DNA of 33,570 nt, from the NCBI GenBank assembly GCA_044220955.1, contig JBGAQA010000077.1, positions 1 through 33,570 on the forward strand, given 5' to 3'. Positions 3,305 to 10,189 of this stretch are shown here, in pieces. The notes beneath the pieces were generated by a model. That model had not been told where the DNA came from, made no database searches, and saw nothing but the letters and a program-made list of their open reading frames with translations. The translations under genes and the position numbers were made by a program. Every line of letters begins with the position of its first letter. Position 1 is the stretch's first letter. The DNA comes from Sandaracinaceae bacterium. Lineage in GTDB: Bacteria > Myxococcota_A > Polyangia > Polyangiales > Sandaracinaceae.

Positions 3305-6300
3305 TCACGAGTGCGGCGGGCGGCGTCTTCGCCGCCATCGGAGGGCGGGGAGGACCAGCGCCAGCGACGTCGTCGCCATCCAGGGACGCGCGGCGGGTGC
3401 GCCGACGACGCAACCGCACCCCGCGATGGGTGGCGCCACCGCGCCTGCGTCGTTCGCGAGCGCGGCGTCGGGTGACGTAGCGCTGCCCGCGTCCGCGCCG
3501 TTGCCACCATCGGCCATGCCCGAGTCCATGCACGACGTCATGTCCGGCGGACACGTCGATGCCGTGCCGTCGCACACCTCCGGCGTGTCGCAGGACTGGG
3601 TGGCGTCCCGGCAGGGTGCGCCCGTCGCGAGCAGCGCATCCGGCGGGCACGACGCAGCCGTGCCGGAGCAGCTCTCCGCGACGTCGCACGGGCCGGCGGC
3701 GGCCCGGCAGACGACCCCGGTCGCGAACGTCGGGATGCAGTCCGCGCTCGAGCCGGCGCACAGGTCCGGGGCGTCGCAGAGGTCGCCGAACGCCGGCGCG
3801 CAGACGGTCCCTGCGGGCGCGTACGTCGGGGGACAGCTGTCATGCACGCCGTCGCAGAAATCGTCGAGATCGCATGGGTTGAGCGGGTCGCGCCGCAGAC
3901 ACGGGGTTCCCGCGGCGAAGATCATCGCGCCCGGACACGAGGTCGAGATGCCGTCGCACGTTCCGAGGGTGGAGCACGACCCGGGCCCCGAGCCGCCGCA
4001 CGCGATGCCCGGCGGAACCACGGCGTCGCCCGGACAGGCGAAGCTGGTTCCGTCGCAGCGCTCCTCCGCGTCGCATGCGCCCACCGGAACGCGGCAGATG
4101 GTGTCGGTGCGAGCCGCCGTGTCCGCGGGGCAGACACCGGACGTTCCATCGCACACCTCGGCCGCGTCGCACGCGAAGAGCGGCGATGCGGCGCGACAGA
4201 CGGTCCCCGCGCTCAGGCGCGCGTCCGCCGGGCACACCGTCGACGAGGACGAGCAGGACTCGGGCAGATCGCAGTCACCGATCGCTGCACGACACACGAC
4301 CGGGCTCGTGAGCGCGGTGCACGTACCGTCCATGCTGCCGCCGGCGGCGACGCTGCACGCCTGGCAGTCGGCCACGCCTCCGCCGCAGCCGCCGGCGCAG
4401 CAGACGCCGTCGACGCAGAATCCGGACGCGCAGGCCGTAGCGTCGGCACAGGCGTCGCCGTCGGCCCCGACGACGGAGAAGACGTGCGCCGCACCGCGAT
4501 AGACCGCGATGGGCGTGTAGGCTTGTGGTCGTCCGAGGAGCGCGACGCTGCCGCTGCGGCTCCACGCGACACTGCTCCCGTGCAAGCTGCCCACTTGCAG
4601 CTCGGCCGGTTGGAGCGCCGTTTCCGTGGACCACGTGCCGGCGGCAGTTCGGAGATAGAGCCCGACCGTTCCTCCGACTGCCGTGAGCGGAGCTCCCACG
4701 AGCGCCCGGTTTCCGTCACCGCTGAGCGCCACCGCGGCGCCGAATCGGTCACCGGTGACGCCAGCCGGGAGGGCGAGAAGGGCCTCCTCTGTCCAAGCCC
4801 CGCCGACGAAGCTGAAGACGCCGACGTGACCCGGTCCGGTCGGGGTCGTCGAGGCTCTCACGTCGATGCTTCCGACGAGTGCACGGCCTCCGCCGGCACT
4901 GAGCGCGACCGACGTCCCGTACAGCGCGTACGCGGGGGCCGCGGAAGGGGTGATCAACGTGGGCGCCGACCACGTCGTGCCGGAGCGAGTGAAGATGCGC
5001 GCGCCGCCGACGTCGGTGAGCGACGCGCGGTTCTCGAAGGGCGAGCCGACGAGCGCCGTAGCTCCGTCGTCGGTGATCGCGACCGATGCGCCGAAGCTGA
5101 CCGAGCCCTGCGTGACGCCCGAGAGCAGAATGGCCTCTTCAGACCAGACGTTCGTCGAGCTGCGGAAGAGCACGCGCGCCGAGCCGCTCCCGAGCCCGAG
5201 CGGTGTCGTGTCCGAGGGTGCTCCGACGACGATCCTGGAGCCGTCGGCGCTGACCGCCACGGAGGCACCGAACTGATCGTACGGCGCAGCCCCCTGCGCT
5301 CCGACGAAGGCAAGCGACGTCCAGCCACCCGCGTCGTGCCCGAACACCACGATCTGGCCCGCGTCGCTGCCCACCGGGGTGTCGGAGTTGGGGCTGCCCA
5401 GCACCACGATCGTGCCGTCGCTCGATATCGCGACGGAGGCGGCCATGTCGGACCACGTGTAGCCGGTGGGTGCGGGCGGCGCGAGGCGAGCGTCGAGCGC
5501 CCACGCCGAGGCGGTGCGCAGGAATACGTAGGCAGCGTTCTCACCAGGAGCGCCCACGACGGCACGTGTCCCATCGCTGCTGAGCGCTACGGATGTACCG
5601 AACACGTCTCCGTCCGTCCCGCCTTCGGGCCCCACTGCGACGCCGGCGTCCCAGCTGGACCCGGTCTTCGTGAACACGACCGCTCCGCCGGCGTTGGTGC
5701 CTACGCCCGCGATGTCGACGCCGGGCGCCCCCGCGATCACCAGCCCTCCCGAGCTCGAGATGGCCACCGATCGTCCGAGCTGATCGGCACCGAGCCCGCC
5801 TGCGTAGGTCAGCACCGGACCCGCCGTCCACGAAGTGCCGTGGTCGTAGGTGCGCAACACGCCCCCGCCTGGGGGGCTCGCGAACTGCGACGGACCACCT
5901 GCCACGAGATGCGCACCATCCGGCGTGAGCGCGACCGACGAGCCGAGCTGCTCGCTCGCACCGACGCCACCGAGGGTGGCGTCCGCGGTCCACGCCGACG
6001 CCGCGAACCGGAACAGGACGACGGCGCCAGTTGCCGCGTCGTACGGGATGCCCACCGCGAGCAGCGTTCCCGACGCGTCGAACGACAGGGCGGACCCGAA
6101 CATGTCCCCCATCGCCGGCGCCGGATCGAGCAGCGGCGCTGCCTCGGGCGTCCAGCTGGTCCCGCTCCGCCGGTACACCCGCACGCTCCCCGCGTCGTTG
6201 CCGCCCGGCGTGTTGTCGCGCGCCGCCCCGATCGCGGCGACTGTTCCGGCCGCGTCCAGCGCGACGCTGAAGCCGAAGTGGTCGCCCGTGGCGAGGTCCG

Positions 6301-7447
6301 TCGGCTGAAAGAGGGCCTCTTGCATCCAGCCTCCGCCTGTCCAGACGAGGGCGAGCGCCTGCCCACTGGTCGTGCCCGCGGATGTGTCCATGTTCTCGGC
6401 ACCGACCACCATGCGGCTCGCATCGGACGCGATGGCGACGGAGCCGCCGAACCGACCGAGGTCGTCGGTCCCAGGCCAAGTCGCCGTGGTCACCTCGGTC
6501 CACGTGGTCCCGCTCCGCGTGAACGTGCGGACGCTTCCCGGCGCGATCGCTCCCACCTTGTCCGTCGGCGCGCCGATCACGACGGTGCTGGCGTCGGCGG
6601 TGACCGCGATCGAAGCGCCGAACGAGTCACCGCCTTCGCCGTCGCTGGCGTAGAGGACGGCCTGCGCGCGCCACCCGAGCGCCACGCGCTGGAGCACGAC
6701 CACCCGACCCGCCGCCAACGCGACGGGTGAGGTCGCGCGGGGCTCACCGACGAAGACGTACATGCCGTCCGCGCTCATCGCCACCGCCGTCCCGTAGCCG
6801 CCGTTGGTCACACCGCCCGGCGGCGCGAGCGACGCCTGCTCGGTCGCGAGGAGCGGGTCGACGACGAGCGGGTACGAAGCTCCGCTGTCGTCGATCTCCA
6901 CGCGCAGTCCGTGCTCGATCGCCGCGAGTCGCGCAGGGACCCGCCCACCGCGGGCATCGAGCACGACGAGCTCGCCATAGCGAGCGACGCAACGGCCGAG
7001 CGCGTCCACGAGCCCGACGTTCTCGTCGTCGATCTCTCGCGCCGCCAGCCCGTCGAGGTGGATGTCCACGAGGAGCGCGCCCGGACCGGAGGGCGGGTCC
7101 GCGATGGTGACGCCATGCTCGAGCCCGGAGGGCAGCGCGCGCCACCACTCTTGCGCCCCCGCGAGGCCGACGTCGAGAACCACGTCCGTGCCTTCGGCGT
7201 GTGCAGGGTGGGCATGCGCGGCTCTCATCGCTCCGACGCGGCCGATCGCCGCGACGCCCAGTTGGAGTCGCTCGCCCTCACCCGCTCCGCGGTCCAGGCG
7301 CACGCCGGCGACACCCGAGTCGAACGTTGCCGAGATCCCCGGCGACGTCAGCGAGAGGGAGGGAGGCGGGCGTATGAACGCCGGGCTCGGGCCGGACGCA
7401 CCGCAGACCACCGCCAGCGCGACGCACAACGCCTGCTGATTCGACAT
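3305..7447 (-). CDS. Large surface protein: N-terminal YPxxVDP domain, 14 FG-GAP repeats, 8 disintegrin-like Cys repeats, MYXO-CTERM-like tail
   Basis: ATG at 7447 with GGAGG upstream; signal-like N-terminus; 14 FGxSVAxSxDG...GAP repeats; 8 repeats of type CRxxxGxCDxxExCxGxSxxCPxD; C-terminal GCGC + hydrophobic segment + RRRRR. Confidence 0.9.
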   Translation of the reverse strand: MSNQQALCVALAVVCGASGPSPAFIRPPPSLSLTSPGISATFDSGVAGVRLDRGAGEGERLQLGVAAIGRVGAMRAAHAHPAHAEGTDVVLDVGLAGAQEWWRALPSGLEHGVTIADPPSGPGALLVDIHLDGLAAREIDDENVGLVDALGRCVARYGELVVLDARGGRVPARLAAIEHGLRVEIDDSGASYPLVVDPLLATEQASLAPPGGVTNGGYGTAVAMSADGMYVFVGEPRATSPVALAAGRVVVLQRVALGWRAQAVLYASDGEGGDSFGASIAVTADASTVVIGAPTDKVGAIAPGSVRTFTRSGTTWTEVTTATWPGTDDLGRFGGSVAIASDASRMVVGAENMDTSAGTTSGQALALVWTGGGWMQEALFQPTDLATGDHFGFSVALDAAGTVAAIGAARDNTPGGNDAGSVRVYRRSGTSWTPEAAPLLDPAPAMGDMFGSALSFDASGTLLAVGIPYDAATGAVVLFRFAASAWTADATLGGVGASEQLGSSVALTPDGAHLVAGGPSQFASPPGGGVLRTYDHGTSWTAGPVLTYAGGLGADQLGRSVAISSSGGLVIAGAPGVDIAGVGTNAGGAVVFTKTGSSWDAGVAVGPEGGTDGDVFGTSVALSSDGTRAVVGAPGENAAYVFLRTASAWALDARLAPPAPTGYTWSDMAASVAISSDGTIVVLGSPNSDTPVGSDAGQIVVFGHDAGGWTSLAFVGAQGAAPYDQFGASVAVSADGSRIVVGAPSDTTPLGLGSGSARVLFRSSTNVWSEEAILLSGVTQGSVSFGASVAITDDGATALVGSPFENRASLTDVGGARIFTRSGTTWSAPTLITPSAAPAYALYGTSVALSAGGGRALVGSIDVRASTTPTGPGHVGVFSFVGGAWTEEALLALPAGVTGDRFGAAVALSGDGNRALVGAPLTAVGGTVGLYLRTAAGTWSTETALQPAELQVGSLHGSSVAWSRSGSVALLGRPQAYTPIAVYRGAAHVFSVVGADGDACADATACASGFCVDGVCCAGGCGGGVADCQACSVAAGGSMDGTCTALTSPVVCRAAIGDCDLPESCSSSSTVCPADARLSAGTVCRAASPLFACDAAEVCDGTSGVCPADTAARTDTICRVPVGACDAEERCDGTSFACPGDAVVPPGIACGGSGPGSCSTLGTCDGISTSCPGAMIFAAGTPCLRRDPLNPCDLDDFCDGVHDSCPPTYAPAGTVCAPAFGDLCDAPDLCAGSSADCIPTFATGVVCRAAAGPCDVAESCSGTAASCPPDALLATGAPCRDATQSCDTPEVCDGTASTCPPDMTSCMDSGMADGGNGADAGSATSPDAALANDAGAVAPPIAGCGCVVGAPAARPWMATTSLALVLPALRWRRRRRPPHS

Positions 7448-7532
7448 CGGGCCTCCTAGTGATGGCGGCGAACGCGGAGAACGCCGATCGCCGCTCATGG
7501 ATAGCTGATACACGACGCGAGCGGCGCCCGGC

Positions 7533-7541
7533 AATCGATTT
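7533..7541. repeat. Left target-site duplication AATCGATTT
   Basis: Identical to 9338-9346; abuts IRL. Confidence 0.92.
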
Positions 7542-7559
7542 GGGTGCAGTTCCCGATCT

Positions 7560-7724
7560 GCGTTCGAGCGCGTGTTCGCGAAGAACGCGTTCGTGCTGGG
7601 ACAGGAGGTCGAGTTCTTCGAGCGCGAGGTGGCCGCCTACCTCGGCGTGAAGCACGCGATCGGCGTCTCGAGCGGCACCGACGCGCTGCTCGTCGCGATG
7701 ATGGCGCTCGGCGTCGGACCGGGG
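7560..7724 (+). pseudogene. 55-codon fragment of a DegT/DnrJ/EryC1/StrS sugar aminotransferase, located inside the IS
   Basis: Translates AFERVFAKNAFVLGQEVEFFEREVAAYLGVKHAIGVSSGTDALLVAMMALGVGPG, the typical DegT N-terminal region; breaks where DEVI would follow; no continuation seen in the window. Confidence 0.88.
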
Positions 7725-7830
7725 AGAAGCGTAGCGATTTCGATCGGTTGCACGGCGTAGGTTGAGGGTCGGGGCTTGCTCGCGGCAGATATCCGGCTGC
7801 TGACACCCAACACCAACCGGAGAAGCCCCG

Positions 7831-9309
7831 ATGCCGCCGAGTATCGACGAGGCACGCGCAGCCGTCGAGGCCGCTGTGCGCTCGCTCGTAGTGTGCGCCG
7901 AGAGCGACGAGAAGTTCGCCGAGTTCGAGTCCATGACGTGGGGCCGCCTTCTGGCGCTGGGTCGCGCCGTGGTCGTGCTGTTCCTGGTGCGCCGCGCGCT
8001 CGCCGAGCCCGCCGCCGGGTACGCGCACGCGGGTACGCGGTGGACGCCGGCCGAGTGGCGCACGACCGACCTCGGGACGCGCTTCGGCAAGGTGCTCTTC
8101 GCGCGCCGCGTCGGCCGACGCGCGGGCTTGTTCCGACGCGGCAGGGCCGACCTGCGACTGGATCGCGTGCTCGGGCTCTGCGGCGGCTTCAGCCTCGGCG
8201 CGGCGACGGCGCTCGCGCGCCTCTGCGCGCAGATGGCGTTCGCGCAGGCGCGCGCGACGATGAGCGCGTTCTTCGAGTGGGCGCCGAGCCCGCGCGCGAC
8301 GTTGCGAATCCTGGACGCGATCGGCGGCCACGCACGCGCGTTCCTCTCGCAAGTGCCGGCGCCGACGGACGACGGCGAGGTGCTCGTCGCCGAGGTGGAC
8401 GGGGGCGGCGCGCCCGCGATCAGCGCGCGCGAGCTTCGACGACGGCGCAAGCCGAAGAAGCACCGGCGTGGTCGACGAGATCGGCGCGAGCGTCGCCGGG
8501 CGAATCCGCGCCCCCGCCGCACGAAGGGCAAGAAGAGCAAGAACAGCAAGGTCGCCTTCGTCGGCGTGCTCTTCACGCTGAAGCAGAGGCCCGACGGCAC
8601 GATGGAGGGCCCGCTCAACAAGCGGATGATCGCGACCTTCGACAGCCACCGCGCGCTCTTCGAGTGGCTCCACTGCGAAGCCGTCAAGCGCGGCTACGGC
8701 ACCAAGCGCACCGTGTTCATCGCCGATGGCAGCGATCACATCTGGAAGTTGCAGAAGGAGTTCTTCCCGCTCGCCGAGGCGTGCATCGACTGGTGGCACG
8801 TCGTCGAGTACCTGTGGACCGCCGCCGGGTGCCTCCACGCCGAGGGCTCGCCCGAGCGCAGCGCGTGGGTCGACGAGCAGAAGCGACGCCTGCGACGCGG
8901 CCACGTGAAGCTCGTGCTCGACACGATGGCCGCCGCACACCGCGCGATCCCCAAGACCGGGCCCGGCAACAAGGGACGCCGCGAGCGCCTGCTGGACACG
9001 CACGAGTACCTCGCCGAACATCAGCACCGGATGATCTACGCCCGCCTCCGCCGCGACGACCTCGACATCGCATCCGGTGTCGTCGAGGGCGCCGTGCGCA
9101 ACCTCGTCCGCATGCGTCTCGACGGACCGGGCATGCGCTGGGGACGAGACCGCGCCGAGATGATGCTCCACCTACGCTGCGTGCTCCTCAACGGCGAGTG
9201 GGAGGACTTCGAGCGCTACCTCGCGAAGCAGACGATCACTCTCGCCGCGAACCCGAAGCCGACGCGCACGCACGACGCTCAACCCAACCCTCTCGCCGAG
9301 GTCGCGTGA
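7831..9309 (+). CDS. ISKra4-family DDE transposase
   Basis: EVDG (D 8398), IADGSDHIW (D 8725), CIDWWH (Mutator C/DxxH signature), IASGVVEGAVRNLV...GMRW (E 9085). Confidence 0.92.
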   Translation: MPPSIDEARAAVEAAVRSLVVCAESDEKFAEFESMTWGRLLALGRAVVVLFLVRRALAEPAAGYAHAGTRWTPAEWRTTDLGTRFGKVLFARRVGRRAGLFRRGRADLRLDRVLGLCGGFSLGAATALARLCAQMAFAQARATMSAFFEWAPSPRATLRILDAIGGHARAFLSQVPAPTDDGEVLVAEVDGGGAPAISARELRRRRKPKKHRRGRRDRRERRRANPRPRRTKGKKSKNSKVAFVGVLFTLKQRPDGTMEGPLNKRMIATFDSHRALFEWLHCEAVKRGYGTKRTVFIADGSDHIWKLQKEFFPLAEACIDWWHVVEYLWTAAGCLHAEGSPERSAWVDEQKRRLRRGHVKLVLDTMAAAHRAIPKTGPGNKGRRERLLDTHEYLAEHQHRMIYARLRRDDLDIASGVVEGAVRNLVRMRLDGPGMRWGRDRAEMMLHLRCVLLNGEWEDFERYLAKQTITLAANPKPTRTHDAQPNPLAEVA

Positions 9310-9337
9310 CCACCGACGGAGAACGGGATCTGCACCC

Positions 9338-9346
9338 AATCGATTT
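9338..9346. repeat. Right target-site duplication AATCGATTT
   Basis: Identical to 7533-7541; abuts IRR. Confidence 0.92.
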
Positions 9347-9373
9347 CGAGGCGCTCGGAGGGCTCCGGTCCCC

Positions 9374-10189
9374 TCACGGCCGTGCGCGGCGAGAGCGCGC
9401 GAGAGTCAAGGCATCCTCGTCGGGCGCGCGCTCCTCCGAAGTGGACGCGCGCGCTGGCGCCGCGGCGGGGCGCCGCACCCAGAGGTGGAGCGCGAGGCCG
9501 ATGGCGAGGCCGGCTCCGACGATGCCGAAGAAGAGGCCCGGTCCGGGGACGTGCTCGAGGCCGGTCTGCACGTTCATGCCGAGCATCGCACCGAGCGCGG
9601 TGAACGGGAGACAGACCGCGGCGAGCAGGTTGAGCCGGTGGCTCTCGAGGGCGATGCGCGCCGAGGCGCCGGCCTCGCGCTCGGCGTCCTCTGCGAGGCC
9701 GAGCTGGAGCGCAGCGGCGGCCTCCTCGGAGAGCGCGCCTGCCTCGCGCTCGAGATCGTAGGCGCGGTCGCGCGCGGCCAGGACGTCGAGGTCGGCGGGG
9801 ATGGCGGTCCGTACGTCCTGCAGCGCGGCGTGCAGGTTGCGCGTCGAGCGCGCGAGCGGTCGCGCCTCGCGGATGAGCGTGAAGCGCTCGCGCGCGCTGG
9901 CGGCTCGGGCCAGCCGCCGCTCGAGCTCGTCGAGCCTGCCCGCGTACGCGTCGAGGAGCGTGCGCAGCGCGACGGGGCCGCTCGGTCCGGGCGAGCCGCG
10001 CCACTGACCTTCCGGATCGCGCCAGAGCAGGGTCCCGCGTCGCTCCTTCTCTCCAGCGCGCGGCGGCTGGTGCAAGAGGAGCAGGGCGTGGCCCTCGTGC
10101 AGCATCGCCCGCTGGCGGCCGATCGAGGCGCCGACGCGCGCGCGCAGAACCGCGGGCAGGGTCCATCCGTCCGGGAGGATCTTCGGCAT
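9374..10189 (-). CDS. CorA-family divalent cation transporter-like protein (short form)
   Basis: C-terminal LNLLAAVCLPFTALGAMLGMN (GMN signature) plus a second TM helix; ATG at 10189 after AGGAGG. Confidence 0.75.
   Translation of the reverse strand: MPKILPDGWTLPAVLRARVGASIGRQRAMLHEGHALLLLHQPPRAGEKERRGTLLWRDPEGQWRGSPGPSGPVALRTLLDAYAGRLDELERRLARAASARERFTLIREARPLARSTRNLHAALQDVRTAIPADLDVLAARDRAYDLEREAGALSEEAAAALQLGLAEDAEREAGASARIALESHRLNLLAAVCLPFTALGAMLGMNVQTGLEHVPGPGLFFGIVGAGLAIGLALHLWVRRPAAAPARASTSEERAPDEDALTLARSRRARP

Follow-up and report, generated by a model that had tools for sequence, protein, structure and literature searches.

A single patch of the host's own degT gene directly inside the left inverted repeat of one ISKra4-family insertion sequence copy in a Sandaracinaceae bacterium

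An insertion sequence (IS) assigned by sequence to the ISKra4 family carries, directly inside its left inverted repeat (IRL), a short patch of a degT-family aminotransferase gene of its host, a Sandaracinaceae bacterium; the patch is present in one IS copy, and it is real, well resolved and recent. The IS lies in the window, which is the whole stretch of DNA that was analysed (33,570 nucleotides of contig JBGAQA010000077.1, assembly GCA_044220955.1). The patch was probably acquired in a single recent event, in which microhomology-templated DNA from the organism's own degT was placed by double illegitimate recombination into an otherwise ordinary ISKra4 element. A repair accident, and not a built-in capture process, is the most likely origin, because the sister copy of the IS and the relatives of the element carry no such piece. 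This reading is supported by direct observations: an empty and a filled state of the element, a donor, both joints, and a family in which such a piece is rare. As a one-off, the window copy is a natural snapshot of an IS starting to carry host DNA, with the empty ancestor, the donor and both joints together in a single genome; the first step by which a transporter IS comes to hold DNA between its inverted repeats (IRs) can seldom be followed base by base.

The IS spans positions 7542-9337 of the window, and each of its ends has an IR, flanked by a direct 9-bp target-site duplication (TSD). An element closed by matching IRs and a perfect 9-bp TSD had been described in an earlier, sequence-only reading of this DNA, and this description holds: IRL (18 bp, 7542-7559, plus strand) pairs with the right inverted repeat (IRR; 9320-9337, minus strand) at 16/18 bases, and the left TSD (AATCGATTT, 7533-7541, plus strand) is identical to, and perfectly matched by, the right TSD (AATCGATTT, 9338-9346, plus strand). 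Between the IRs, a DDE transposase of 492 aa is encoded on the plus strand (7831-9309) and is intact in the window. The transposase scores 212.1 bits against the NCBIfam model for ISKra4 (NF033572; cut-off 205), and its catalytic residues (D190, D299, DxxH at 320-323 and E419) are all present and are invariant across 20 aligned homologues. A frameshift, caused by an additional T after position 8992 (codon 388), was seen only in the contigs of two of the metagenome runs described below (X3 and X8). Members of the ISKra4 family have IRs of 18-39 bp and direct repeats of 8-9 bp (Guerillot et al. 2014, PMC3942029); the IR length of the window element (18 bp, 16 matching) falls within this range, and its direct repeats measure a perfect 9 bp at the window copy, while the sister copy has 9-bp repeats of another sequence. 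By these sequence characters, the window element is a member of the ISKra4 family of prokaryotic Mutator-like elements, which agrees with the assignment made before the profile search.

The insertion is intergenic, with a large gene of FG-GAP repeats on its left and a CorA-like gene on its right, each encoded on the minus strand; the CorA-like assignment of the right neighbour comes from a weak Pfam match (E 2e-4) below the cut-off. The FG-GAP gene (3305-7447, minus strand) encodes 1,380 aa with 8 FG-GAP and 5 disintegrin-like cysteine-rich stretches, and its start lies about 85 bp from the IS, such that the IS is upstream of the gene and may have a promoter effect on it. Some ISKra4 members are inserted 13-17 bp from a sigma-A promoter (PMC3942029). 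An empty target site was sought in two ways: the left flank of the IS was not found in any of the five congeners, and the joints listed for the four metagenome runs include none that bypasses the complete IS.

A stop-free piece of a DegT gene at the inner edge of IRL had also been proposed from the letters of the window, and the searches confirmed and refined it. The stretch 7560-7724 is free of stops over 55 codons and matches Pfam DegT_DnrJ_EryC1 (PF01041) with an E value of 2e-15 at model positions 11-64 of 360. The stretch that matches the donor is 164 nt long (7560-7723), and 159 nt of it (7563-7721, plus strand) are new to the IS and derive from the host degT-family aminotransferase gene, as seen by Pfam, by identity to contig C79 of the same genome and by the congener orthologues. 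Numbered by the congener orthologue, the insert corresponds to about codons 27-79; it lacks its own start codon, and its frame hits a stop 11 codons into the leader of the IS. The parent gene, for which a search of the source genome had been proposed, is found on C79, which begins with 7647-7723 (77/77 nt identical); past the repeat, its degT frame stays open and ends at a natural stop, with 333 codons in all on this contig. The closest solved structures to the parent are sugar aminotransferases, including QdtB and WbpE. The contig with the 5' part of the parent is absent from this genome's bin, and C79 starts inside the repeat; in run X1, parent-type loose ends occur both before 7560 and after 7723, around one 164-nt node. 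The piece is 87-92% identical to the orthologues in all five congeners, and the sole internal difference listed among the runs is one base in X8. A paralogue on C55 was considered as the donor and rejected, as it is only 75% identical to the piece. By sequence comparison, the piece is a recent copy of the organism's own gene, because it matches C79 at 77/77 nt, the congener orthologues at 87-92% and the in-genome paralogue at only 75%. A degT gene disrupted at the site of the IS was also rejected: the rest of degT lies on C79 with its natural stop and is not found beyond IRR, where the CorA-like gene lies instead, and the earlier view of the piece as cargo therefore stands.

The genome contains a second copy of the IS, split over the ends of contigs C29 and C32, that has its own matching 9-bp TSD and no degT. 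The sister copy reads IRL, GCG, C, leader, and the window copy reads IRL, GCG, 159 nt of degT, leader; the insertion thus consists of 159 nt (7563-7721) in place of one C of the empty copy. The distance from the IRL tip to the ATG is 131 nt in the empty copy versus 289 nt in the filled one, a net gain of 158 nt, and the ordinary, empty element has a length of 1,638 bp. Only one filled left end is present among this genome's contigs. The empty joint (7562 to 7722, with one C between) was seen in three of the four runs. At the left joint, the 3-nt microhomology GCG (7560-7562, plus strand) is also present in the empty C29, and the shared node starts at 7560 in X1-X3; GCG occupies the left-joint position in 3/5 of the congener orthologues shown. 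At the right joint, the 2-nt microhomology GG (7722-7723, plus strand) is present in both C79 and the empty C29. Microhomologies of 3 and 2 nt at both joints have a chance expectation of about 3% at this GC content. Untemplated bases are absent at either joint, and an IR tip is absent from both joints, which lie on the inner side of IRL. A pseudo-IR at 7722 (6/8 to the IRL tip, by eye) was considered as a joint made by the transposase and rejected, as it is not conserved in the family; it also fails to account for the left joint.

Very short microhomologies and the loss of a single base fit end joining. In this main alternative route, a double-strand break immediately interior to IRL would have been sealed by Ku/LigD-type joining around a loose chromosomal degT fragment, which would likewise be a one-off and neutral event. 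Ku is encoded in 2/5 congeners, the two most complete ones, but this genome (88% complete) has no match to Ku or LigD_N, and the lack of untemplated bases at the joints also speaks against this route, which is unlikely overall.

The preferred reading, a templated patch, starts with an IS of the empty type. At GCG, a nascent or loose strand would have left the IS template for degT, of which it copied about 160 nt before it returned to the IS at GG, with one base lost; the transposase would have made neither joint. The transposase of this superfamily joins the outer tip of one IR beside the other IR or to the target (PMC3942029, PMC7780238). Host repair, and not the transposase, is indicated because neither joint has an IR tip, while strand transfer in the superfamily joins the outer IR tip. 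Against the templated patch count its length of 159 nt, which is beyond the SPDIR range given below, and the very short exact microhomologies, as well as the X1 depths and, weakly, a variant joint that runs from 7558, at IRL's inner edge, to 7783.

The junctions were examined in independent assemblies of 4 out of 22 listed runs, which come from four studies dated 2019-2025; one of these runs is possibly the source sample. The runs that contain the window stretch are chiefly sludge and bioreactor metagenomes. A contig that joins the left flank, IRL and degT and a contig that joins degT and the leader are both present in 4/4 runs (four studies), and in X1-X3 the 164-nt node occupies exactly 7560-7723. 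Bridging was defined as 31 letters on each side of a junction and was found only at the left junction in X8; the remaining junction contigs have 30 letters on the repeat side, as expected at a graph branch. It had been suggested that a misassembly would leave the junctions at 7560 and 7724 uncovered, and each of them was found in contigs of all four runs and all four studies. Five other contigs of the genome end within this IS with 77-nt overlaps, and such a tangled graph could in principle have yielded a chimeric de Bruijn path; however, because both junctions occur in independent assemblies of 4/4 runs from studies of 2019-2025, an assembly artefact is hardly credible.

No contig in the four runs spans the whole 164-nt repeat. 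This would allow a different phasing, in which IRL is joined to the 3' part of degT at one place and the 5' part of degT is joined to an IRL-less IS at another, degT having been split by recombination between the patch and its parent. In keeping with this, the parent path is broken at the repeat, where C79 starts and the 5' contig is missing. However, the assembly of the window runs through this repeat as well as through two that are longer, and its flanks are paired with matching TSDs; a contig of X2 (7694-9434) links the degT junction to the right flank and confirms this join; and the patch would still have to arise first. The phasing of the window is accepted because of the window's own assembly, the matching TSDs and the X2 contig, and the alternative phasing is improbable.

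The filled copy is present at the same locus in 4/4 runs. The read depths in X1 are 15.5 for the flank, 46.5 for the degT node, 31.9 for degT-leader, 14.1 for the empty form and 48.4 for the leader; these values are not copy numbers, and the best balance among them is obtained with two filled left ends, a hint that the filled form had moved or undergone duplication. X1 has no second filled flank among those listed, and in X2 and X3 the depth of the IS body is about that of the flank. For the mobility of the cargo, one filled locus was thus seen, and the X1 depths hint at a second. The variant joint from 7558 to 7783, observed in X2 and X3, describes a left end without most of the leader and with its break at the inner edge of IRL; it is a weak observation, as its short side has 21 letters, and it may derive from another organism. 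In genome G000, the ends of contigs C151 and C149 (equivalent to 7989 and 8772) mark another IS copy that is broken by two other elements, which encode an ExeA-like ATPase and an IstB-like protein (named by eye from their translations). In X1, the contigs share the 5 bp 8772-8776, as expected of a TSD.

The sequence-only reading had further proposed a fixed slot next to IRL in which this type of IS repeatedly acquires host snippets. For the relatives of the IS in metagenomes and genomes, 82 loci were compared, made up of the best 80 of 119 metagenome matches and the genome loci L001 and L002; L003, a 216-nt piece of a transposase, was omitted from the set. IRL could be resolved in 69 of the 82 loci, and the leader is plain and 122-159 nt long in 65 of these. 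The other four leaders measure 747-781 nt and contain a whole passenger ORF of 181-194 codons that begins after a normal leader. Most of the 13 unresolved loci are truncated at the end of a contig; there is also one with another IS inserted in the leader and one with a passenger ORF. A host fragment at the IRL edge was found in 0/69 resolved relatives. These relatives are mostly 50-60% identical, so that a hot spot limited to the close clade would be judged against only six empty left ends. A related IS in the congener G001 is empty in 3/3 copies, and the two closest metagenome relatives among the best 80 of 119 (L034 and L035, 84-85% protein identity) are both empty. Furthermore, a class-wide search for ISKra4 elements yielded 30 loci, eight of which, besides the window, have an IR pair and a TSD; six of these distant elements have short leaders and two have a whole small ORF, and host fragments next to IRL are lacking from all eight, as judged by translation and, for one of them, by comparison with its own genome. 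The IRL pattern occurs at eight places in 32 genomes of the bacterial family: two in this genome, three in G001 and three by chance, the latter inside a coding gene without a transposase nearby. A pattern run over 401 genomes of the phylum was built such that only empty leaders could match, and its result is left out of the count. No relatives of the IS were found in viral contigs, either by protein or by leader pattern, or on plasmids at E 1e-40. With an empty sister copy, three empty copies in G001, the empty L034 and L035 and no host fragment in 69 relatives, the proposal of a fixed, repeatedly filled slot was not upheld.

Several left ends of other kinds were encountered among these loci. 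L076, L081, L083, L084 and L096 form a sub-clade in which an ORF of 181-194 aa with a basic N-terminus precedes the transposase; the one passenger ORF that was scanned has no Pfam match. In L064, a different IS lies in the leader, about 35-40 nt from the expected IRL. L126, L128 and L129 (genome G064) are three left ends of the same IR type with nearly the same 10-nt flank and no transposase match within 1.5 kb, and are possibly part of a larger repeated element. In L151 (2758-3587, genome G485), the left end of an ISKra4 element includes a short repeat that is found at dozens of places in the genome, followed by a divergent small ORF.

The same comparisons bear on a capture coupled to transposition, similar to that of Pack-MULEs, in which a replication fork that meets the bound transposase would switch template at the inner edge of IRL, copies would gain or lose DNA there again and again, and the filled copies would still transpose and spread the host fragment. 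The related transposase of ISCth4 binds bp 7-11 and 14-25 of its end, and a shortened recipient end still works (PMC7780238); the insert at bp 22 lies at the edge of such a bound region, and the tolerance of a shortened end would suit this route. The intact transposase ORF, the X1 depths that hint at two filled ends and the deletion variant, which also starts at bp 18, point in the same direction. Against this, host fragments at the IRL edge are lacking from the 69 resolved relatives and the eight distant elements, the contigs of this genome contain one filled left end, and X2 and X3 show an IS body depth about equal to that of the flank; capture coupled to transposition is accordingly rather unlikely. 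It is similarly doubtful that the inner edge of the ISKra4 IRL is a transposition-linked hot spot of template switching and that the window copy is an early, autonomous, mobile Pack-element, each new copy of which would add a 164-nt repeat able to recombine with the parent sugar-aminotransferase gene, with variation of the surface glycans of sludge populations as the outcome.

For the templated patch, the leader of the IS suggests why the insertion was tolerated. At the IRL end, per-position conservation over 60 distinct leaders is high to about bp 20 and falls at bp 21-26. A subterminal box (7738-7750, plus strand) that resembles the IHF consensus is conserved in the leaders; counted from the IRL tip, its place is +39 in the empty copy, and the insert pushed it by 158 bp to +197. 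The best site for this IHF-like box is at +39 in 31/60 distinct leaders, and 12/60 leaders have the box with at most one mismatch versus a mean of 2 and a maximum of 7 in shuffled sequences. IHF helps to assemble the transpososome of IS10. If the putative IHF-like box aids transpososome assembly in this IS as well, the filled copy may be less mobile, by analogy, although the shift need not abolish mobility; lower mobility, and a settled copy in general, fits the presence of the filled copy at one locus in 4/4 runs and the frameshift in 2/4. Further downstream, a leader hairpin (7766-7835, plus strand; fold -29.7 kcal/mol) covers GGAG and the ATG with its 3' arm; a -10-like box (7788-7793) follows downstream of the 5' arm. 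Among the 60 distinct leaders, at least six pairs of the hairpin are present in 49, with changing pair types, and folding of each leader gives z < -2 in 43/60 versus 2/60 for a control segment. Hairpin-type protection against read-through transcription is known from IS10 and IS50, and a hairpin over the ribosome-binding site and start codon resembles it; nothing relevant was found in the literature on such a hairpin in ISKra4. The degT insert lies upstream of the promoter-like box and the hairpin, both of which are intact downstream of it. Judged by this conservation pattern, the insertion site inside IRL is permissive, because conservation drops from bp 21 and the promoter-like box and hairpin remain intact. 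The patch would thus have survived because bp 22, where it begins, is already past the conserved 20-bp end but still precedes the promoter-like box and the hairpin, and its likely effects would be no protein and little effect on degT.

Retention of the patch for a function, either as a source of minus-strand antisense RNA against degT or as a repeat that switches surface-glycan variation, is very improbable. The filled copy does occur at its locus in 4/4 runs, both neighbours are on the minus strand, read-through is conceivable, and the parent resembles the sugar aminotransferases WbpE and QdtB; but the patch is a single occurrence, no consensus promoter or terminator is found nearby, and selection is not required for a patch to persist in strains only a few bases apart. 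The search for a consensus promoter covered both strands of 7350-7900 and is a weak test in a genome of 72.5% GC. Since the piece also lies upstream of the promoter-like and hairpin region, the antisense or guide role that had been suggested for it gained no support. A role as a recombination handle, which had been named as well, is possible by construction, given a near-perfect repeat of 164 nt.

In the open-access literature, no report of a host-derived fragment within a bacterial Mutator-like IS was found. With ISKra4 elements (p-MULT 4; PMC3942029) the window IS shares a Mutator-like DDE transposase, 18-bp IRs and 9-bp repeats. A circular transposition intermediate is a feature of the family; the data on the window IS are assembled contigs. 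PMC3942029 describes additional genes, without a known function, in four ISKra4 elements; the extra sequences in that account are whole ORFs, whereas the window IS has a start-less fragment from the same host, in one copy and directly inside IRL. Other ISs with DNA that does not serve transposition are the tIS, which carry whole passenger genes, and the TMos, which take adjacent DNA by misreading an end (PMC9330008). The window element is like both in carrying such DNA, but it differs from the tIS described there in that its cargo is a start-less fragment that runs into a stop and is missing from the sister copy, and from TMos in that its cargo comes from a non-adjacent donor and is enclosed by the true IRs.

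SPDIR events offer a likeness in mechanism (bioRxiv 10.1101/2023.11.22.568220 and 10.1101/2024.07.02.601687), as a heterologous short patch from elsewhere in the genome is placed by two illegitimate microhomology joints and few bases are replaced. SPDIR patches measure three to ~100 bp in a genetic assay (10.1101/2023.11.22.568220), in contrast to 159 nt in a natural isolate here, and the likeness rests on the exact microhomologies, with only a 30-letter loose end of the donor's 5' flank seen. Pack-MULEs of plants are described as numerous and non-autonomous, with the transposase lost (PMC6446971). Unlike these, the window element is a single copy with an intact 492-aa transposase (frameshifted only in X3 and X8 contigs), and capture did not recur in the relatives, the congener copies or the distant elements (0/69, 0/3 and 0/8, respectively). 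Like a Pack-MULE (PMC6446971), however, it has Mutator-superfamily ends, a 9-bp TSD and a host fragment inside, with the parent gene elsewhere; if filled copies are mobile or the site is a hot spot, gene shuffling of the Pack-MULE type would extend to bacteria, with a simple assay.
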